Virus record (IMG/VR): IMGVR_UViG_3300036398_002581 | Span: 5,570-69,569 of that record | Direction: 5' to 3' (one strand) | From: a virus | Length of the DNA stretch: 64,000 bases | Part shown: piece after piece, positions 3,933-62,403 of the stretch | Position numbering within the stretch: the first letter of the stretch is position 1 | Layout of the letters: each line of letters begins with the position of its first letter | The notes under the pieces: model-generated | The model's input: the letters and a program-made list of their open reading frames with translations, nothing else | Databases searched by the model: none | Told to the model about the DNA's origin: nothing | Translations under genes and position numbers: made by a program

Positions 3933-4105
3933 AAAACCGAGTGACCCCCTACGAGGCCGGCTGGCTGACATTTCTGGTCAGCAGCGGCATCGCCAGCGAG
4001 GCTGCCTGCCGCGCCGCGATGAATCGCGTGGCCCAGGACGCCCTCGACGAGATCAACCGCCTGCGGGAAAAGAAGCGGGCTAGCAAAAAACGCAAGGATC
4101 AATAG
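3929..4105 (+). CDS. small hypothetical protein (58 aa, MKNRVTPYEAGW...)
   Basis: ATGA-coupled ORF below the track's size cut-off. Confidence 0.5.
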   Translation: MKNRVTPYEAGWLTFLVSSGIASEAACRAAMNRVAQDALDEINRLREKKRASKKRKDQ

Positions 4106-15341: not shown

Positions 15342-15381
15342 GCCATCGGGGGCGGCGGAAGGAGTCGCCGCCCCCGATGGC
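15342..15381. terminator. 16-bp perfect inverted repeat (hairpin)
   Basis: GCCATCGGGGGCGGCG / CGCCGCCCCCGATGGC; no U-tract. Confidence 0.55.
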
Positions 15382-20044: not shown

Positions 20045-20074
20045 ACGGGAATCCTTTCCGTTGTGTGCGGCAGT

Positions 20075-20103
20075 AGCCTACCGGGTACCAAGTGTCCTGT
20101 CCA
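20075..20103 (-). promoter_or_regulatory. putative promoter TGGACA-17-TAGGCT for csrA
   Basis: Sigma70 consensus similarity. Confidence 0.45.
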
Positions 20104-25234: not shown

Positions 25235-26020
25235 TCACTCGTCGTCGCCGATGTCCGCGGCCGACACCGTCGCCCCGGCGGGGGGCGTGTTGAACATCTG
25301 CGTCAGCGGGGTGTGGTAGACCTTCTCGGCCACCGCCCCCTGCTCCTCGGAGATCGTGCCGACGGTGCGGAACACGATCTGCGAGTACGGCTGACCCCCA
25401 GAGTTCTTGATCTTCTGGAGCTTCAGCCCGATCACGCACTCGTAGGAGAAGCTGGGCAGACGCTTCCGAAACGGCAGCCAGCTCGCAAGCGACCCAGGCC
25501 CGACGGTCACGAGGATCGGCCACGTCTCGCCCTCACGCAGGATGGCGAGCACGCGGGATTCCTTGACCTTCCGCGACCGGCCGCCGGCCTTGCCGGACCC
25601 CCAGCCAAACTCTGGTCCGGTGGACAATGCCGCCCAATCGAAACGACGGTCGCCGATCCGATACTTCTCCAGAGCCTTGGGGTCACAGTCTCCCAGGTCA
25701 TCACTCACACGGTAGCCGACGATCAGATCGTGCGTCACGATCACGGGCCTCATGTCCGACGGGTCATCCTTCGGCCACAGGGTTCCGCGGCGGCCCTCGG
25801 CGACGAGCAGGCCGACGATCTCCTCGGTCGTCTCGACATTTCCCTGGTTGTCGATCGCCCAGACGGTCCCGCCGCCTGCCGGCGTCGGAACCTTGATGAG
25901 GTCTTGCTCCCTCATCGGCTCACCCTCGAGGTTCGACTGGATGATCCTCGCCTGCCGGCTGGTCGGCGAGAGCGAGGGGTAGTCGATCGTCTTCACGTTC
26001 GTCGAAATCGCAGTGCTCAT
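25235..26020 (-). CDS. putative single-stranded DNA-binding/annealing protein
   Basis: Replication module position; acidic C-terminus IGDDE. Confidence 0.55.
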   Translation of the reverse strand: MSTAISTNVKTIDYPSLSPTSRQARIIQSNLEGEPMREQDLIKVPTPAGGGTVWAIDNQGNVETTEEIVGLLVAEGRRGTLWPKDDPSDMRPVIVTHDLIVGYRVSDDLGDCDPKALEKYRIGDRRFDWAALSTGPEFGWGSGKAGGRSRKVKESRVLAILREGETWPILVTVGPGSLASWLPFRKRLPSFSYECVIGLKLQKIKNSGGQPYSQIVFRTVGTISEEQGAVAEKVYHTPLTQMFNTPPAGATVSAADIGDDE

Positions 26021-26094
26021 GATTTGCTCCTTGAGCTTTCCTATCGATCCATCAACACACGCCAGCGAGGCAACACACCCCGCTGGCAATCAAC

Positions 26095-26574
26095 TCAGAA
26101 CGGGGCTGCCTCGTTGGTCGTTGCCCCCGGAATCGTCAGGTGCCGAAGTTCAGGACGGACGTACTCGCTGACGATGCCAGCGAACGGAGTCCCCTCGGCC
26201 CAGGGCTGGCGGGCGTCCCTGCCCGCAGCCTGCGACATCTCTTTGAGCAGGCTCTTCAGTCGGGTCGTGTTGACGCCGACCAACTGGGCCTCCATCCCCG
26301 CTGCTCGTGCCGCGGCCAGAATCGCGTCCTGCTTTTCTGCCGTGGCGGTCACCGAGTGAACCCACTCGATCCGCCAACTCCGTCCGGCGACTCGCACTCC
26401 GTCGAGTCTTCCTGCCGTCATTTCCTCCACGGCAATGCTCGCGAGCTTGTCGCGGCGCTTCTTCAGTTCCTTGACAGCCATTTCCGCCGAGTCGATCTCT
26501 CGGTCGATTCTGGAGATCGCCTCAAGCGCGCTCGACAGCGGTGTGTCTTGCTCTGTAGCCTTCGCAGATGACAT
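26095..26574 (-). CDS. hypothetical replication-module protein (coiled coil)
   Basis: ORF between SNF2 and the SSB-like gene. Confidence 0.6.
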   Translation of the reverse strand: MSSAKATEQDTPLSSALEAISRIDREIDSAEMAVKELKKRRDKLASIAVEEMTAGRLDGVRVAGRSWRIEWVHSVTATAEKQDAILAAARAAGMEAQLVGVNTTRLKSLLKEMSQAAGRDARQPWAEGTPFAGIVSEYVRPELRHLTIPGATTNEAAPF

Positions 26575-54173: not shown

Positions 54174-54365
54174 TTACCGCCTCTTCTTCGGTGTGTGCTT
54201 CACGGCCACTTCAGCCCGCTCAATGGTCTCGGGAACCAACTCGGCAGTCTCGGCCTCCTCGATCAGCCCGCGGCGGATGAGGATGTCGCACATGCCAGCG
54301 GCCCAGTCCTCGAAGACTTGGCCTTTCTCGTAGCAGTCGAAGTTCTGGAGGATGCGAATCTTCAA
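54174..54365 (-). CDS. small hypothetical head-module protein
   Basis: TTG start; LIRRGLIE. Confidence 0.5.
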   Translation of the reverse strand: MKIRILQNFDCYEKGQVFEDWAAGMCDILIRRGLIEEAETAELVPETIERAEVAVKHTPKKRR

Positions 54366-55090
54366 TTGACCTGCCCCCAGGCGTTTTCCGGTGCCTTCTG
54401 GCCGTTCGTCCAATACTCGGTCGTGTGCTGCTGCACCTTGCCGCCATCGGCGCTCCTTGAGGGCCACGTCACCATCAACTCGGCGTGCCCGACGCTGACG
54501 TGCGTAGCCAGCCCCAGCGTGTTTCCACAGGCCGCCCAGGACTTCCAAAAGGCGATGTCTTCGTCGGTATGCCCGCCGTTCCACTCGCCCTGGTCATTCG
54601 CACGAGCGATGAACCAGGGCTTCTTCATCTTCTTCAGGGCGGCGGTTCGCAGGAACGTCAGCCCGAAGTGTGCCGTCTCGACCGGCTGCACCACCTTGCC
54701 AAAGAATTCGCCGTCGACCGTCGTCCTCTCGTCAGCGTCGCTTCCTGCCAGGGCGAACATCACGGCGTTCGCCTCCCGCTTCGTCTGGAGCGGCGCGATT
54801 GCGTCGAAACCAGAGTGCATCAGCAGCGTCAGCAACGCCTCGACCGTCTTCGCGTTGAAGACCGTGTCGTAGTCGACGGTCAGGATCACGTCGTGTGAGT
54901 CGATGACCTGTTCCATCGCTCGCTGAAGGCACTGGCCCCAGAAAGCACCCGTCACCTTGATGGGACTGATGCCATGCGGGGCCAGTGCCGACGAGACGCA
55001 GAAAAAGTTGTCGGTGAATCCCAGTCGCGGGGTCGACATGACCGCCGCGACTTTGATTTCCGCTTCGACGTTGCCTACTCGCATCAGCAT
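54362..55090 (-). CDS. GT-A-fold glycosyltransferase-like protein
   Basis: ILTVDYDTVF (DxD), HFGLTFLR, KKPWF, DEDIAFW, VGH. Confidence 0.7.
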   Translation of the reverse strand: MLMRVGNVEAEIKVAAVMSTPRLGFTDNFFCVSSALAPHGISPIKVTGAFWGQCLQRAMEQVIDSHDVILTVDYDTVFNAKTVEALLTLLMHSGFDAIAPLQTKREANAVMFALAGSDADERTTVDGEFFGKVVQPVETAHFGLTFLRTAALKKMKKPWFIARANDQGEWNGGHTDEDIAFWKSWAACGNTLGLATHVSVGHAELMVTWPSRSADGGKVQQHTTEYWTNGQKAPENAWGQVN

Positions 55091-55166
55091 GGATCGCTCC
55101 TTATGTGGAGCGGGCGCGCATCCATGCGCCTTTGTCGGCCGTCATGGCCGTCCCGCAAGTCGGGAA

Positions 55167-55630: not shown

Positions 55631-56983
55631 TCACGACGCCGCGGACTTGAGAGCAACCACGGGGCCGGCGGTCGTGTTGTCGCCGAGCGAGTGATGAACC
55701 ACGTCGAACCGCATCGTGCCTTGGAGCAAGAGCTGATCGGTCGTGGCGTAGACTTGGTCGTACATCCGCACTGCGAAGTCGCGGCGACGAGCGTAGATGC
55801 TGGACAGACCCAGGTTCGCGAAGAGAACCTTGACCTTGCCCGGATCGGCACCGAGCGTGCCGTCGAGGACGTGAACGTAGTTCACAGGAAATCCCATGAA
55901 CTGCTCGGTCACGCCACCGCCGACCTGCTCGACGGTGTTGCCACCGGCCGCGTAGCGGAGGCGGGCCATCGAGGCAGCAAAGCCGGCCGGCGAGATGTAC
56001 CACGCTGCACCCTGGCGGGCGTAGAGAGGCATCTTGCCGATGACCTTGATGAAGTCGGTCACGGTCAGGGTCTCGAAGCCCGTGGCACCAGCACCGGCAG
56101 TCACGACGCCCGCGTTGTGCGTGCCGTCATTGACCTTCGGCACCACGCCGTAGATTCCGCCCGAAGCAGAGTCGCCCGCGCCGAGCCAGCCGACCAAGTC
56201 GGTCTTGTAGGCCAAGCTCGTCGCGAACTCCGTAGCCACGGCATCAGCGATCGACACAAGAGCGTCTTCCACCACCTCGCTCGACATGCGGGTTCCCACG
56301 GCCAATTTCTTGGCAATGAGCTGCACGTTCGAGTAGGTCGGCTCGCTCTCGCTCACCGCGGTGCCTTCGCCGACGAAGTAGGCCGTGGTGCCCGTGACAC
56401 GCTTCGGGATGATCATCGTGTCGCGGGTCATCGTCACCTTCTCGACATTGCTCGCTGCGAAGGTGCCGAAATTTTCCACCAACCTGATCACGCGAGAAGC
56501 GAACTCCTCTGGGACGAGAGCACCGCCAGAAGCGTTGCTGTTCTCGCCCATCGCGCGGTTCTCGACGCCGTGATCCTTGCACCACCGGAGGTCTTCGGCG
56601 TTCTTGAAGATGTGAGCCCGGAGCCACCTGCCGCAGCGGTAGGCACTCTCGACAGCCTCGGGGCCGTCGTTGAATGCACGCAGGCTGGTGTGGTGAGGCT
56701 GGATCGAACGAATCTCGACCTTCTTCTCCTCGACCTTCGCGGCGACTTCAGCAGCCGGAGCCGGGGCAGGGGCGGCCTTCTCGACCACGGCCCGCAGTTC
56801 GGCTTCCTTCGCGGCGATCCGCTCCTCGAAGTCCAGGGAGGTCTTCAGGTCGTCGGCCTGAGTGCCGAGCGAGATGAGTTCCTTGGTCTGCTCGGCCGAG
56901 CGATCCTCGATACCGGACAGTTCGGTCATCCGAGCGGCGACAGCCGCTGCACGTTCCTGAAGACGCTTGAGATTCGACGCCAT
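55631..56983 (-). CDS. major capsid protein, HK97 fold with N-terminal delta domain
   Basis: GGALVPEEF; A.FVGEG; SSEVVED; MRFD. Confidence 0.95.
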   Translation of the reverse strand: MASNLKRLQERAAAVAARMTELSGIEDRSAEQTKELISLGTQADDLKTSLDFEERIAAKEAELRAVVEKAAPAPAPAAEVAAKVEEKKVEIRSIQPHHTSLRAFNDGPEAVESAYRCGRWLRAHIFKNAEDLRWCKDHGVENRAMGENSNASGGALVPEEFASRVIRLVENFGTFAASNVEKVTMTRDTMIIPKRVTGTTAYFVGEGTAVSESEPTYSNVQLIAKKLAVGTRMSSEVVEDALVSIADAVATEFATSLAYKTDLVGWLGAGDSASGGIYGVVPKVNDGTHNAGVVTAGAGATGFETLTVTDFIKVIGKMPLYARQGAAWYISPAGFAASMARLRYAAGGNTVEQVGGGVTEQFMGFPVNYVHVLDGTLGADPGKVKVLFANLGLSSIYARRRDFAVRMYDQVYATTDQLLLQGTMRFDVVHHSLGDNTTAGPVVALKSAAS

Positions 56984-57128
56984 TTTGGCCTGCTCCTTGG
57001 TTTGAGCCGGCCAAACGCACAATCGCGGCGGCCGGCGGGTGATCCCGCTAGCGCGCCGCGTGCTTGAATCCTCAAGTCGCTCGCACTGCCCCTCACGACA
57101 TCCGTCGTGAGGCAATGTCTCTCTATGT

Positions 57129-57158
57129 AGCCTAGCGACCTTGACTTGCGCCGTGCAA
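57129..57158 (-). promoter_or_regulatory. putative promoter TTGCAC-18-TAGGCT for the capsid gene
   Basis: Consensus similarity; implies a ~140-nt structured 5' UTR. Confidence 0.45.
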
Positions 57159-58802
57159 CTGAGTCCGAAGAATTGTCGCCTTCAGGTTCGCGAGCTTGAC
57201 GGCGATGTCGATGTTCTCCTGCTCCGCACGCATGTCCTCGGCGGGCTTGTCATCAACCGGCTCCGGCTTCTTCTCTTCTGCGCTCATACGTTCCTCGGGG
57301 ATGATCCACAGCTTGCACACGGCGTCGGCCGCAATTTCTCCACTCACGATGTAGCATCTGCCTTCCTCGGACTCGAAGAAGACGCAGTTGCTGCACTTCA
57401 ATCCGTCATTTGCGAACGGGTTCTCGGTCATGTAGTGAGCGTCATCCGGGCTCCAGGGACCGTACTCCTCGGCGATGCCCTCGTAGCACTCCGCAAGCGC
57501 GAGGTTCACCGCCGACAGCGTGTCCGCATACTCACCTTCGACGCCGTCTTCGCCGATGTCACGTTTGCCGCTCGCCCGCTCGATCTGCGAGACCTTGGCC
57601 TCACTCCACCGCCACGCTGGATCGCCGCCCCACAGCATCCAGGCGGTGTACCCTGGCGTTTCCTCGCCCTTATTCGACCAGCCGGGTCTCTTGTCGACCT
57701 TGTGGCGTCGGAACCACGCTCGCATCTCGCGAACGTGCTCGGGCGTCAGTTCTTCGCGTGCGGCGATCTTGCCGGCACGGGCCACCGTCTCAGGCTTCAG
57801 CCCGTCGCCCGATCGGCCCTCCTCGTGCAGGGCCAGACCGCGCTTCGCGGCGGCTGCCATGCCCGCGGTGGGCTTCAGATTTACGTCGGAGGCGGCGCGG
57901 GTCTCATCTGAGGCAGCCTCGGGGGTGGTTTCAGCAGAAGAGTCCACCGACGGGGCTGCCTCCGCGGGCGCGGAAGCAGCACGCCGATCCACCCACTTCT
58001 CGCCAGCGTCGCCGCCGGCCAGTTGCCACTCGATCCAGGCTGGCGAGCCTGACCAGCCCGTCACTTTCGCCGCCAAACACCGCTCGTAGACGCCGGAGAG
58101 GTACGAAACCTCCTCGACACTGACGATTTCGCGGTTCGCGACTCGTTCGGCGATGCAAAGAAGGCGAGAATCGATGCTTTCGTGCCTCTGGGCCAGCTTC
58201 AGGCCGCGCTTCGACGCATTCGCCATCGTCTGGATGGGCCGGAATGACTCACCCAGGGCCATTTCGATGGCTCGACGGCTCACAACCACGCTGGAAGAGT
58301 CGTATGCGGGCCGAACCACGGGCCCAACGTCCTCGAGCAGCCCGATCGCACGCACCTCACGCCTGCGAAGACCACGCTGACTGTCCGTCGACCACGAATC
58401 ACCGCCTTCTCGCTTGATCGCGAAGGCGAAACTGGACCCGACAACCGTCCGATCCTTCACCCATTCGACCACGTCGCGGCCGATGGAGGTGTTTTCGTTC
58501 GGCGTGATCTCGTAGCGAAGCCCATACGGGTCTTTCTTGAGTCGCATAGTACCATTTCCGGTACGTCCGAGCAGCAGGTTGCGGTCGTGATTGAACACGC
58601 CGATGACATCGGGGTTCTCGGCGAGCACTTCGTCGAACGCATTCGGGTGAATCGTCTCGATGAAGCCACCCAGGTTGCGGCTTTCGGCGTTAAAAACGGC
58701 GGCGTAGCCCGAAATCACGGGCTTTTTTTCGCCGTTACCCATGTCTCGGTACTCGATCGTCGCGTCCGAAACCGTCGTGCGCCGCTCAATCTCGTTGCTC
58801 AT
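57132..58802 (-). CDS. HK97-family prohead protease fused to two repeated domains and a HiPIP-like 4-Cys domain
   Basis: ISGYAAVFN, FNHD, SSFAF, V..PAY; W.L.GGD repeats; CSNC...C...C. Confidence 0.88.
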   Translation of the reverse strand: MSNEIERRTTVSDATIEYRDMGNGEKKPVISGYAAVFNAESRNLGGFIETIHPNAFDEVLAENPDVIGVFNHDRNLLLGRTGNGTMRLKKDPYGLRYEITPNENTSIGRDVVEWVKDRTVVGSSFAFAIKREGGDSWSTDSQRGLRRREVRAIGLLEDVGPVVRPAYDSSSVVVSRRAIEMALGESFRPIQTMANASKRGLKLAQRHESIDSRLLCIAERVANREIVSVEEVSYLSGVYERCLAAKVTGWSGSPAWIEWQLAGGDAGEKWVDRRAASAPAEAAPSVDSSAETTPEAASDETRAASDVNLKPTAGMAAAAKRGLALHEEGRSGDGLKPETVARAGKIAAREELTPEHVREMRAWFRRHKVDKRPGWSNKGEETPGYTAWMLWGGDPAWRWSEAKVSQIERASGKRDIGEDGVEGEYADTLSAVNLALAECYEGIAEEYGPWSPDDAHYMTENPFANDGLKCSNCVFFESEEGRCYIVSGEIAADAVCKLWIIPEERMSAEEKKPEPVDDKPAEDMRAEQENIDIAVKLANLKATILRTQLHGASQGR

Positions 58803-59272
58803 GCCGTCACCTGATTCGCGAGGTAGTTGTCCAGACCGATCTGTTCGATAACACGCTGTTTTGCCTCGATCGCCGCCACCGCTTCTTCGCTGCCTTCGAG
58901 CAACTGAGTGAAGATGACGGCAGAAATCTCGTCGCCGACGGCGCGGCAGGCCGCCACGTTGGCTCGCTCGACCTCCGCGGCGGCGGTTTCAAGCGAGAGG
59001 TTGGCTGCGAGGATGCCCTCGTAGTCGTGCCTGGGCCAATCGGGCTGGTCGTGGTCGTAGGTCGGCTGAACGTCGTAGTATTCGAGCCGCGCCTGAACCT
59101 CATGCAGATGCCGGCGTTCCTCTTCGGCCTCGCCGCGACTCGTGTCGGCAAGTTTGCCGTAGCCCCAGCGGTCGAAGTGCTCGGCCAGCGACTGATAGTG
59201 TTCAATCGCGGTCATGTGCAGCCGAACGGAGGCTTGCAGGGCGTCGATCACGCCTTCAGGTGCTTGTGGCAT
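58799..59272 (-). CDS. bacterioferritin-like protein
   Basis: AIEHY, WGY.KL, EEERRH, LETAA, IEQIGLDNYLANQ align colinearly with Bfr. Confidence 0.85.
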   Translation of the reverse strand: MPQAPEGVIDALQASVRLHMTAIEHYQSLAEHFDRWGYGKLADTSRGEAEEERRHLHEVQARLEYYDVQPTYDHDQPDWPRHDYEGILAANLSLETAAAEVERANVAACRAVGDEISAVIFTQLLEGSEEAVAAIEAKQRVIEQIGLDNYLANQVTA

Positions 59273-60899
59273 CGCTCGTCAGGTGCTTGTCGCACCAGTC
59301 CTCGGTTACTGATTCGTACTTCTGGCCGCTGCGATGGCACTCGAGCAGGAGTTCTCGCGAGCGACTCATCCACGAGCCCACGAACTTGTCGATGTCTCTT
59401 CCGGTAGCCTGTGCGGACTCGCGAAGCTCTTCACGCATCCGGCCGGTCATCTGATCAAGCCACGCAGCAAGCTTCTCGGGCTTATTGCGTCGCTCAAGGA
59501 CGCCGTCAGCCTCGATGGCGGCGAGTCGCCGGAGAGAAGTCTTGAAGACAACTTCGGCTCCTGCGATCTGGCGGGCGTCGGGGGCGTCTTCTCTGTCGGG
59601 GGCATCGCCAACCGTCGGTTCCGGCGGCCCGTCAACGCTGCCCTGGGGAGCGGGAGTCTGCGGCTTCTGGCCGGTTGGGTTCTCAAGCGTGAACGCCTCC
59701 AGCAGTTGCATGTTCACCTGAATGAACCGCTTCTTTCCGACGCCGTCGGGGAGCGGGTTGTAGCCGATCTGCGCGCGAATCTCGTCGATGTCGAGAGCGC
59801 CGAGGTTCGCCATCTCACGAATGAACTGCGACCGCGCGGCGTAGTCGCCGGCCATCAGCGAGTTCAAGTCGAACTGACAGAAATACTGCTTGTCGTCGAC
59901 CACGAGGTCTCGCCGACACGCCATCTCCCACCGCCGGCACCAGGGAAGCAGCGAGAACGTGACGAAGTCGATCGCCTGCTGCTCGACGGTACTGTGCCGA
60001 ACATCCGACAAGTCGCCGATCAAATACTGAGGCACACGATAGCAGCGTGCCACTTCAGCCAACTGAAAGCGTCTGGTCTCGACGAGCTGAGACGTGTCGT
60101 TCCTGACTTCGACCTGCTTGCGGTGAAAGCCGAACGGCATGATGACGGTTTTGTATGCCTTGTCCGGCCCTTGATGGGCGTCAATCCACTGGTCTTTGAA
60201 CCGGGCGAGCACCTCGGGTTTGTGAGGCTGGTCGGTTTCGATGTAGGTTCCGACCTGCGCGCCGTGCCCGAAGAAGCTGCCGGAGTGCAGTTCCGTCGCT
60301 CGCGCCAGGCCGATCGCGTCTCGCGACAGGGTCGTTGGCAAGTAGCCTGTCACCCCGTCGGATGAGAGCCAGCGAAGATGAAAAATCTCGTCCTGCCGAT
60401 ATTCCGTCGGGTCAGGCGTCGGCTGGATCAGGCTGGTGGACTCTCGGTAGTAGTATCTCAGCTTGCCGTTGGTGAGCCGCTTGACCTCCATCCGCGATGG
60501 ATGGAGCGGAATCAGCTCGGTGACCGCGCCGTTCTTGCCGCCCTTGATGTAGGCGTAGGCGTTGCCCCAGAGCAAAAGCCAGCTTTGCATGAGTTCCCTG
60601 AACTCAAAGCCGGTCATCCACGAGTTCGGCTGATAGGCGATCACCTCGTGCAGGTGCTGCTCCTCGGCAATCTCCTTGCCGCCACCGGGAAGTCGCCGGT
60701 ATACGTTGAACGGCAGGCTGGCGATCGACTCGGATAGCACGCGGACGCAGGCGAGAACGGCCGTGCATTCCAGAGCAGTTTCAGGCGAGACGGAGATGCC
60801 CGACGCAGTGCGACGGGTGCTCGAAATCTCCTCGAAAATGCGGGAGAGGTTACCGCGAAGCTCGATCAGATCGGAGACTTCTTCGTCGACTCTGTCCAC
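59256..60899 (-). CDS. HK97-family portal protein
   Basis: VLACVRVLSESIASLP; PNSWMT; GNAY; VPQYLIG. Confidence 0.95.
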   Translation of the reverse strand: MDRVDEEVSDLIELRGNLSRIFEEISSTRRTASGISVSPETALECTAVLACVRVLSESIASLPFNVYRRLPGGGKEIAEEQHLHEVIAYQPNSWMTGFEFRELMQSWLLLWGNAYAYIKGGKNGAVTELIPLHPSRMEVKRLTNGKLRYYYRESTSLIQPTPDPTEYRQDEIFHLRWLSSDGVTGYLPTTLSRDAIGLARATELHSGSFFGHGAQVGTYIETDQPHKPEVLARFKDQWIDAHQGPDKAYKTVIMPFGFHRKQVEVRNDTSQLVETRRFQLAEVARCYRVPQYLIGDLSDVRHSTVEQQAIDFVTFSLLPWCRRWEMACRRDLVVDDKQYFCQFDLNSLMAGDYAARSQFIREMANLGALDIDEIRAQIGYNPLPDGVGKKRFIQVNMQLLEAFTLENPTGQKPQTPAPQGSVDGPPEPTVGDAPDREDAPDARQIAGAEVVFKTSLRRLAAIEADGVLERRNKPEKLAAWLDQMTGRMREELRESAQATGRDIDKFVGSWMSRSRELLLECHRSGQKYESVTEDWCDKHLTSDATST

Positions 60900-60900
60900 G

Positions 60901-62403
60901 CTACAGCACCATGAGGGTTGGTTCGTCGGTATTGCCGTGGGTCTCGCTCGAGGCAATGCCCAAGGCCATGATCAGAGAAACTGCCCCGTCGATGCGGGCC
61001 GTGGAGTGACTGTTTTTCTTGGTCGGCTTGATGTTCCCGGCGTCGTCTACCTTCACCTGCACGTTCGACATCTGCCACGCCAGGACGGGGTTGCCGCCGT
61101 GACGCAGGCGTTTTCCAACGCAGAGTGTCTCAAGCAGCTTCGACGGCGCTGACATGCTGGCAAAACCTTGTCCAAAAGGCTTTACGTCGATGCCCTCGGC
61201 CGTCAACTGGGTCGTCAGATGCACTGCATTCCAGCGGTCGATCGCAATACTCCGAACCGCATTCTTCTCGCAAAACGAGAGAATGTAGTCGCGGACTACG
61301 TCGTAGTCTGTAATGTCTCCATCAGTAAGCTTAACAAATCCAGCGTCCGCCCAGGCTTGATACGGCACTCTGTCCTCGCGACCCCGCTTGATCGCGTTCT
61401 CCTCTGGGATGAAGAACATCGCGTGGATGTCATACGTCCCGTCGGCGTCCGGCCAGACCGCCACGAACGCCGTCGTGTCGAATGTGCTGGCGAGGTCGAC
61501 GCCACACCAGCATGGCCGCCCTGCCGTCGGCCTGAGAGGCTCGTTGTTGGCGTCCCAGGCACCGTGCCTGATCCACTTGGTTTCCGACTTCTGGAACTGG
61601 TTCAAATGTAGGGTTCTGAAAACGACTTCGTCGGTCGGGGACTGCTTCGCCTTCTCGGCAAATTGCTTGAAATAGTCGGGTTTTAGCGTGATTCCGTAGT
61701 TCGGATTCGCCTTCTTCCACGTCTCCTCGATGAACGGGTCGTCCTCGGGATCGGCGGCGTAGATGCAGGGTAGGAAGGTGTCGTCCTTCAGGACGCCGTC
61801 GCGAATCTTGATCGCCCGCTGCCAGTCCTTGTAACACGGGCCGTCCATGTCGGTGCCGGCCGTCGTGATGTAGATGGTCAGCGGTTGGCTCCTGGCACCA
61901 GTGCCCGTCTCGAGTACGTCGACCAACTCGCGGTCGGGAAAGACGTGATATTCATCGACCAATACGCAACTCGGGTTATAACCGTGCTTGGTCCCGGCCT
62001 CGCTCGATATGCAGATCATCGTCGAGTTCTTCTCGGGGAAGACGATGCTGTTGCGATATATCTTGCACCGCTTCGTCAGCGACGGGCAGCTTTCGACGAA
62101 CTGCTTCGCTGCGGTATGGAGCAGCGCCGCCTGAGAGCGGTCGCCGGCCGCGACGATTACTTCGGCCCCCTCGTCGTCGCAGCAGAGCATGTAGAGGCCG
62201 ATGGCAGCCGATAGGGCCGATTTCCCATTCTTGCGGGGCAACGCGAGCAAACTCGTCCGATACTGCCGCAGACCGTCGGGCTTCTTCGTGTTGAAGAGCT
62301 TGTCGAGGTACTCGTCCTGCCATCGCTCGAGGACGAAAGGCTTCCCTGCAAAGTCGCCGCGACTGTGCTTCAGTAAGCCGATGAATTGACGTATGTCAAC
62401 CAC
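60901..62403 (-). CDS. terL: terminase large subunit
   Basis: PRKNGKS, VDEYH, GVDLA, IDGAVS. Confidence 0.95.
   Translation of the reverse strand: MVDIRQFIGLLKHSRGDFAGKPFVLERWQDEYLDKLFNTKKPDGLRQYRTSLLALPRKNGKSALSAAIGLYMLCCDDEGAEVIVAAGDRSQAALLHTAAKQFVESCPSLTKRCKIYRNSIVFPEKNSTMICISSEAGTKHGYNPSCVLVDEYHVFPDRELVDVLETGTGARSQPLTIYITTAGTDMDGPCYKDWQRAIKIRDGVLKDDTFLPCIYAADPEDDPFIEETWKKANPNYGITLKPDYFKQFAEKAKQSPTDEVVFRTLHLNQFQKSETKWIRHGAWDANNEPLRPTAGRPCWCGVDLASTFDTTAFVAVWPDADGTYDIHAMFFIPEENAIKRGREDRVPYQAWADAGFVKLTDGDITDYDVVRDYILSFCEKNAVRSIAIDRWNAVHLTTQLTAEGIDVKPFGQGFASMSAPSKLLETLCVGKRLRHGGNPVLAWQMSNVQVKVDDAGNIKPTKKNSHSTARIDGAVSLIMALGIASSETHGNTDEPTLMVL

Follow-up and report, generated by a model that had tools for sequence, protein, structure and literature searches.

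The spacer of about 150 nt between the prohead protease and major capsid protein genes of this virus (57131-56984, minus strand) is the site of a conserved structured RNA, and is predicted to form the 5' leader of the mRNA for the major capsid protein. All positions refer to the window, that is, the whole 64-kb stretch of DNA analysed, which comes from a 69.6-kb viral record detected in lake-water DNA runs and, among the runs listed, in no RNA run. The leader is a real, conserved and strand-specific RNA structure, with a fold predicted by comparing related sequences, and represents a new, well-supported structured RNA motif absent from Rfam. It is very likely a cis-regulatory element, predicted to act as a translational operator. 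As to what reads this element, control by CsrA is the best single explanation that we can infer from the sequences, and one to which we give about an even chance.

Genomic context and relatives of the leader

The features considered here are collected in Table 1. Translation of the capsid protein starts at the ATG at 56983-56981 (minus strand). Searching a phage collection with the capsid protein returned remote matches only, none of them covering 80% of the query, and a tRNA scan found no tRNA. The ferritin-like gene occupies an unusual position, between the portal and prohead protease genes. In the prohead protease itself, the S78 domain takes up residues 20-180 only, while the long C-terminal part has no Pfam match and carries, as read from the DNA, a Cys-rich stretch near its end.

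Table 1. Genes, sequence motifs and predicted RNA elements of the window
Feature	Position	Strand	Support or remark
Large terminase	60901-62403	minus	Head module
Portal	59256-60956	minus	Head module
Ferritin-like gene (Dps/rubrerythrin-type)	58799-59272	minus	PF00210, E = 1.4e-12
S78 prohead protease, 556 aa, long C-terminal extension	57132-58802	minus	
TTGCAC, candidate -35-like hexamer within the end of the protease gene	57153-57158	minus	Assignment weak
TAGGCTAC, candidate -10-like or phage promoter motif	57134-57127	minus	Holds the protease stop TAG (57134-57132)
P1, CCUCACGAC-GGAU-GUCGUGAGG, 9-bp hairpin, tetraloop 57103-57100	57112-57091	minus	9/9 pairs covary
P2, long irregular hairpin, AGUGCG/CGCGCU + GCG/CGC + CUUGA/UCAAG, GGAU tetraloop 57071-57068	57087-57050	minus	RNAalifold
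P2 tip, CUUGA-GGAU-UCAAG	57076-57063	minus	
P3, GCGGG-AUCA-CCCGC	57048-57035	minus	99.4% of cells pair; 2/5 pairs covary
P4, CGGCCG...UGGCCG hairpin, inner CGC/GCG helix	57034-57008	minus	Outer helix 99.4% paired
P5, UUUGGCC-G-GCUC-AAACCAAG-GAGC-A-GGCCAAA, predicted OFF state	57015-56984	minus	Minimum free energy (MFE) fold of the window
Shine-Dalgarno sequence (SD), AAGGAG	56998-56993	minus	GGAG in 104/104 leaders
Major capsid protein gene, 450 aa, HK97 type	55631-56983	minus	PF05065, E = 3.4e-25; phrog_10, E = 3.3e-42
Leader-2, three hairpins, in front of head gene 54362-55090	55091-55166	minus	
Leader-2 last hairpin, GCGC-AUGGAU-GCGC	55116-55129	minus	A-N-GGA-X hexaloop
Leader-2 anti-SD, CGCUCC	55112-55107	minus	
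Leader-2 SD, GGAGCG	55100-55095	minus	
Phage csrA, 60 aa	19862-20044	minus	PF02599, E = 2.1e-15; 56.8 bits, cut-off 27
csrA SD hairpin, GGA-AAGGAU-UCC, 7 nt before the ATG	20048-20059	minus	A-N-GGA-X hexaloop

A scan of viral contigs with the capsid protein yielded 223 relatives, and the upstream regions of the best 80 of these 223 (70-100% identity) provided 57 distinct leaders. A DNA pattern derived from the P2-base/P3/P4 region then gave at least 118 further stretches in viral contigs, with one match per contig in at least 118 contigs. Including these, 206 loci contained 184 pattern matches, from which 92 distinct leaders were retained once 10 unparsed matches had been dropped; together with the window and 11 leaders of the first set missed by the pattern, they form the 104 distinct rows of alignment A2. 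Conservation of P3 and P4 in this second set is partly circular, since the search pattern was taken from that region; P1, the P2 tip and P5 lie outside the pattern. Every parsed copy of the leader is followed by a capsid gene starting with M-A-S-N-L-K-R-L-Q or a close variant. As a control, the same genomes were compared just after the capsid gene, where the spacer is short and unconserved.

At larger distances, the leader of a capsid relative with 63% identity from a planctomycete bin (L282) retains a GGAU loop at P1 as well as at P2, the stems being different, and once more has its SD paired, here to CCUU. Three capsid relatives at 38-42% identity have another upstream gene and no such leader, and a fourth has too little upstream sequence. 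In L283, L284 and L286, which come from planctomycete bins and fall in this 38-42% range, the position of the leader, directly before the capsid gene, is taken by a small Cys-rich zinc-ribbon-like ORF, and L283 also displays a GGAU-loop hairpin upstream of its capsid gene.

Predicted fold of the leader

P1, the tip of P2, the third hairpin and the SD, all proposed in a first-pass annotation of this DNA, were recovered at the same coordinates on the minus strand, and the RNA folding and covariation analysis that it had put forward as a check supports the helices in related phages. The second of its hairpins is present as drawn, yet is merely the tip of a longer helix (57087-57050). A 171-nt piece folds at -80.7 kcal/mol, compared to -63.2 ± 4.1 kcal/mol for 200 shuffled versions (z = -4.29; 0/200 as good). 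Across the 104 distinct leaders, both RNAalifold and pair counts support four consecutive helices, P1 to P4. For the 37 pairs counted in these leaders, 97.4% of cells pair, versus 31-47% after sliding the partner by 1-3 columns, and 19 of the 37 show two-sided change (244 cells), a level reached by none of 500 shuffles.

Covariation affects 4 of 5 pairs in the P2 tip helix and 2 of 9 in the P2 base helices, where 99.1% of cells are paired (104 leaders in both cases). One G-C pair of P4 becomes A-U in 10/104 leaders, without any mismatch, and the segments CCRGCC, GGCYGG and RGCC covary together in three differently diverged groups of leaders. The P2 base, P3 and P4 are otherwise mostly invariant, with a few compensatory pairs; much of this invariance is neutral with regard to pairing and hints at a further constraint.

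Several G-U pairs are conserved, including a U-G found in 102 of the 104 leaders at one P2 pair, which assigns the structure to the capsid sense strand. The P3 loop varies in both length and sequence, and because its length steps are not multiples of three, the leader is not coding. An in-frame TTG at 57115 was ruled out as a coding start by the same non-triplet changes, together with the presence of a capsid start with a good SD. A longer P3 helix (GCGGCG/CGCCGC) was dropped in favour of the P2 base and P4, which do show compensatory changes, and an extension of P1 (CAUUGC/GCAGUG) drawn in the MFE fold of the window is lost in relatives.

No Rfam family matched anywhere in the 64 kb at the gathering cut-off, and raising the threshold to E = 10 for 56900-57250 gave two chance-level matches only (E = 1.4 and 2.5), neither of them on the strand of the leader. 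No terminator was detected in 56800-57400 by an E. coli-type consensus scan, and a U tract follows none of the hairpins.

A predicted two-state switch at the Shine-Dalgarno sequence

The MFE fold of the window contains a further hairpin, P5, which had been missed in the first-pass annotation and which pairs the GAG of the SD and abuts the A of the start codon. Its arms pair UUUGGCC (57015-57009) with GGCCAAA (56990-56984), and GCUC with the GAGC at the SD. P4 and P5 are mutually exclusive, as the strand 57013-57008, the 3' strand of P4, is common to both, and their energies in the window are about -14 and about -17.5 kcal/mol, respectively.

P5 is predicted in 53 of 53 parsed leaders from the set of 57, the mis-parsed L077-L080 being left out. 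Counted on the MAFFT alignment, P5 is 80.4% paired with no clear signal, a count that is uninformative because the 3' end is misaligned there; an anchor-based permutation test was used instead. Across 65 distinct strand pairs, the outer helix of P5 forms on average 6.65 consecutive pairs with its own partner versus 5.38 with foreign partners, and none of 2000 permutations reached as high a value. Moreover, in the leaders in which the P4 pair changes from G-C to A-U (10/104), the downstream partner in P5 likewise changes from G to A, in three differently diverged groups, as read by eye from the sequences. Since the P5 partner changes along with P4, both helices seem to be used. The leader thus combines a conserved SD-pairing helix with a conserved and exclusive alternative, the arrangement of a two-state translational operator, and our fold models give it an SD-free form (P4, predicted ON) and an SD-hidden form (P5, predicted OFF) of similar stability.

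Conserved GGA loops in P1 and P2

The stems of P1 and P2 drift while their loop GGA stays fixed. In P1, GGA is found in 103/104 leaders (the exception, L194, reads AGAC), followed by U in 69, A in 19, C in 15 and G in 1 of the 104, and the closing pair covaries (CG 57, UG 30, AU 10). The P2 tip carries GGA in 94/104 leaders, with U as the fourth loop base in 85 of these 94; in nine others the tip is deleted or replaced, and one reads AGAUC. The contigs bearing the leaders without P2 are all short. By sequence alone, A(N)GGA occurs in 84/104 leaders at P1, 85/104 at P2 and 103/104 at the SD. The string of GGA-loop hairpins initially described in the leader hence holds for P1 and P2, while the GGA of the third hairpin (74/104) did not stand up.

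Both P1 and P2 are GGAN tetraloops in which the A of A(N)GGA is base-paired, and neither forms the high-affinity A-N-GGA-X hexaloop. A single CsrA dimer can reach sites 10-63 nt apart, and the 32 nt from the P1 GGA (57103) to the P2 GGA (57071) place at least two sites within reach of one dimer. These two GGA triplets lie 107 and 75 nt from the GGA of the SD, and have no structural tie to the choice between P4 and P5. The SD itself reads A-A-GGA-G, its GAG being paired in P5, although any SD of this type contains a GGA.

The phage csrA gene and other candidate CsrA sites

The ORF first annotated as a phage CsrA scores above the Pfam cut-off for PF02599 (Table 1). Aligned to solved CsrA structures (1y00, 2bti), the protein keeps L-T-R-R and V-x-I-x-R-E-E, the stretches that presumably carry the RNA-binding residues of CsrA. 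The gene is a core gene of this phage group, as it was detected in 14 of 15 related viral records, the one miss being a 46%-complete fragment. The co-occurrence of leader and csrA lacks a negative class, with no long genome having one without the other.

In 16 of 16 csrA leaders (window and 15 relatives, down to 37% amino acid identity), the GGA of the SD lies in a loop of 6-7 nt, mostly of the A-N-GGA-X form, with flanks that are complementary by eye. At least seven different stem sequences are seen, and RNAfold draws the hairpin in 13 of the 16. Such an SD hexaloop on a varying stem looks like a predicted case of autoregulation, and csrA of E. coli is autoregulated. The short csrA leader (20045-20080, minus strand) starts after a copy of TAGGCTAC that shares bases with the stop codon of the gene before it.

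The leader of the downstream head gene (leader-2) displays its hexaloop on a stem in 50/50 distinct relatives, with A and GGA fixed and the other two positions free (N: A 26, U 19, G 5; X: U 28, A 12, C 6, G 4). CGCUCC...GGAGC is likewise present in all 50, so that the anti-SD is able to pair with the SD. The available text of PMC4005645 gives the high-affinity CsrA consensus as an A-N-GGA-X hexaloop placed directly on a stem, a form that, within this one phage, is found at two candidate sites, the SD of csrA and leader-2.

A promoter-like motif at the start of the leader

At the upstream end, TAGGCTAC is kept in all leaders, and within its TAGGCT the bases T, A and T never vary, either in the 57 or in the 104 leaders; this motif had also escaped the first-pass annotation. 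The window contains six exact copies of TAGGCTAC, at 4103, 4125 and 63910 (plus strand) and at 20080, 37940 and 57134 (minus strand), and 39 copies with at most one mismatch versus 14.3 ± 4.0 expected (0/100 shuffles as high). The exact copies mostly lie 25-150 nt upstream of gene starts, that of csrA included, with inconsistent -35 regions. Of the 16 csrA leaders, most have the motif ahead of the gene, in several cases as a one-base variant; no copy was read in L082 or L086.

In close relatives, TTGCAC stands at a constant 18 nt from TAGGCT, as measured by eye, while the sequence of the spacer and the position of the upstream stop vary; the distance is 13 nt in L282. The hexamer is also coding, for Leu-His. 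A consensus scan of 56800-57400 detected no E. coli-type promoter. Judging from its recurrence and placement, TAGGCTAC may serve as a promoter element, of the phage or of its host, that departs from the E. coli consensus, and the capsid mRNA probably starts a few bases past it, a position that fits the transcription start near 57122 initially guessed for this locus.

Candidate hosts

Among binned genome contigs, 66 of 68 matches to the DNA pattern were chance matches in GC-rich genomes, and the two true matches came from one Planctomycetaceae bin and one Chakrabartia bin. Capsid homologues were detected in 6 of 176 genomes of the planctomycete family versus 1 of 301 genomes of the family of Chakrabartia, and the planctomycete family is the favoured host on the basis of these binned contigs. 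The planctomycete genomes encode 4-5 CsrA genes each, none of them on the capsid contig, which makes a host CsrA another possible reader of the leader. In the Chakrabartia bin, the only CsrA is the phage copy.

What may read the leader

If CsrA controls the capsid leader, a dimer of this family, most likely the phage's own CsrA, would recognise the GGA in the P1 and P2 loops, the A-A-GGA-G at the SD, or both, and would thereby set the amount of capsid protein made. The same CsrA would also control its own gene and the downstream head gene, through hexaloops at or next to the SD. That CsrA times capsid synthesis had been suggested from the outset; the conserved GGA loops, the phage CsrA and the hexaloops elsewhere speak for this proposal, whereas P1 and P2 being tetraloops far from the SD speaks against it. 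Repression and activation are about equally likely. In the former, CsrA would occupy the SD while anchored at P1/P2, with relief once abundant late mRNA titrates CsrA; in the latter, it would protect the 5' end or favour the SD-free state, and the conserved default-off hairpins in both late leaders would fit such a role.

A bolder proposal, which we hold tentatively and would rate somewhat below an even chance, is that of a self-contained Csr circuit in a widespread lake-water phage group. In this circuit, csrA would shut itself off via its SD hairpin, the capsid and head genes would carry GGA-hairpin leaders with default-hidden SDs, and the phage CsrA would, beyond transcription, time or dose the virion proteins. 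If true, the capsid leader would represent a new class of CsrA-responsive RNA, in which GGA tetraloop hairpins are coupled to a two-state SD switch.

The leader may instead be a self-contained or otherwise controlled switch, a reading that we consider unlikely but worth serious attention. P4 and P5 would then set access to the SD through the kinetics of folding, or in response to temperature or to some ligand or non-CsrA protein, and the P1/P2 loops would be read by another factor, e.g., a phage head protein that acts upon the mRNA encoding it, or the 30S, for which they would be SD-like standby or decoy sites. This would agree with two helices that are both conserved, exclusive and near iso-energetic, with P1/P2 being distant from the SD and not of the hexaloop type, and with the SD-like loop context of P2 (GAGGAU), while the long invariant stretches CAGUGCGAGCG, GCGGCGCGCUAGCGGG and GGCCGGCUC suggest recognition beyond pairing. 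However, no riboswitch or other Rfam family matches the leader, and the phage encodes a GGA-reading protein along with textbook candidate sites elsewhere. For the 30S in particular, the fourth loop base is mostly U (69/104 in P1, 85/94 in P2) and not the G that anti-SD pairing would favour.

Another reading would see in these hairpins RNA-end structures only, with P1 ending or stabilising the protease transcript, or protecting the 5' end of the capsid mRNA, and thus providing a high capsid-to-protease ratio without any trans-acting regulator. P1 is indeed stable and GC-rich, 19 nt past the protease stop and about 10 nt past the putative capsid mRNA start, and capsid genes are commonly required to yield more product than the genes next to them. 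Yet the terminator scan was empty and no U tract follows any hairpin, and stability alone leaves both a loop triplet fixed in 103/104 leaders and a conserved SD-pairing helix unexplained, which makes this reading improbable.

The leader had also been proposed to act as an RsmZ-like sponge, in which case abundant late capsid mRNA would soak up host CsrA and so reprogram the cell at a late stage of infection. The capsid mRNA is likely the most abundant late transcript, and each copy would offer two or three GGA sites; these points, and the 4-5 CsrA paralogues of the candidate host lineage, would suit such a function. Known Csr/Rsm sponges carry many GGA motifs, however, whereas the leader has two conserved GGA loops only, is continuous with the capsid ORF without a terminator of its own, and has no CsrB/RsmY/RsmZ-type Rfam match; in addition, the phage adds CsrA rather than removing it. 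With these defining features absent, we consider a sponge very unlikely. Finally, conservation at the DNA level (promoter, operator or other protein-binding DNA site, with incidental RNA folds) might be read from the recurrence of TAGGCTAC in the genome and from conserved blocks that are GC palindromes, e.g., CGCTAGCG and GCCGGC, but is extremely improbable given compensatory changes that keep distant complementarity while destroying local palindromes (CCAGCC/GGCTGG), and conserved G-U pairs that would be C-A mismatches on the opposite strand.

Comparison with known systems

Similar to CsrA/RsmE-repressed leaders such as E. coli glgC and Pseudomonas hcnA, the capsid leader displays a GGA in the loop of an upstream hairpin and a second GGA in the SD, with a CsrA gene at hand, and the top of P1, ACGGAUG, has what we take to be the same seven letters as the hcnA site. 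It departs from these leaders in the distance of its sites from the SD (75-107 nt), in having a regulator encoded by the phage and in having a virion gene as the target. The loops also differ, being 4 nt long with a covarying closing pair instead of the hexaloop described in the available text of PMC4005645.

CsrA-activated leaders (flhDC, ymdA) resemble the capsid leader in that its candidate sites lie at the extreme 5' end, far from the SD. Activation by CsrA proceeds through protection of the 5' end in flhDC and through opening of an SD-sequestering hairpin in ymdA. A positive factor would make sense here as well, since a conserved hairpin hides the SD, but the GGA never overlaps the SD-hiding strand, unlike in the activated leaders. 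The sponge RNAs CsrB, RsmY and RsmZ share with the leader a series of hairpins with GGA in the loop, but here only two such loops are conserved, in an RNA predicted to be part of the capsid transcript and without an Rfam match.

A lambda-type nut site is comparable in being a hairpin near a promoter (putative in our case), with a fixed loop and a drifting stem. In lambda, the boxB hairpin is read by N, and boxB loops are GNRA-like pentaloops. The capsid leader differs by its GGAN loops and by its last helix, which pairs the SD and points to a role in translation.

CsrA genes are common in phages, and we know of no targets established for them. The csrA gene described here resembles the small CsrA genes carried by phage PTXU04 (gp28) and Burkholderia phage CSP3 (orf23). 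According to the available text of PMC10269572, the CSP3 gene is located just upstream of the capsid gene, while in that of PMC11879866, knock-down of PTXU04 gp28 leads to small plaques, and what phage CsrA does during the phage life cycle is described as previously untested. No RNA target is named for either gene in these texts, whereas our locus provides candidate cis targets in the phage's own mRNAs. A literature search turned up no paper describing the leader of a capsid gene as a target of CsrA. The locus thus offers short candidate RNA elements (P1/P2, leader-2 and the csrA SD hairpin) that can be tested against a 60-residue protein, and suggests that late translation in a phage could be run by the phage itself with a global regulator of the host type.

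Other GGA hairpins in the window

Across the window, neither GGA-loop hairpins (rank 16 of 64 triplets) nor A.GGA. hexaloops (6, rank 6 of 55) are enriched. A fourth candidate site, an A-U-GGA-U hairpin upstream of gene 25235-26020, was rejected, its GGA being lost in 2 of the 5 relatives compared. Another hairpin upstream of the same gene (26060-26095, minus strand) has a stem that covaries and a GUGUUG loop that is conserved across the window and L287-L290, the four closer of the five relatives compared. The longest GGA-loop hairpin in the window is a perfect 17-bp hairpin with an AAGGAG loop at 15342-15381 (plus strand).
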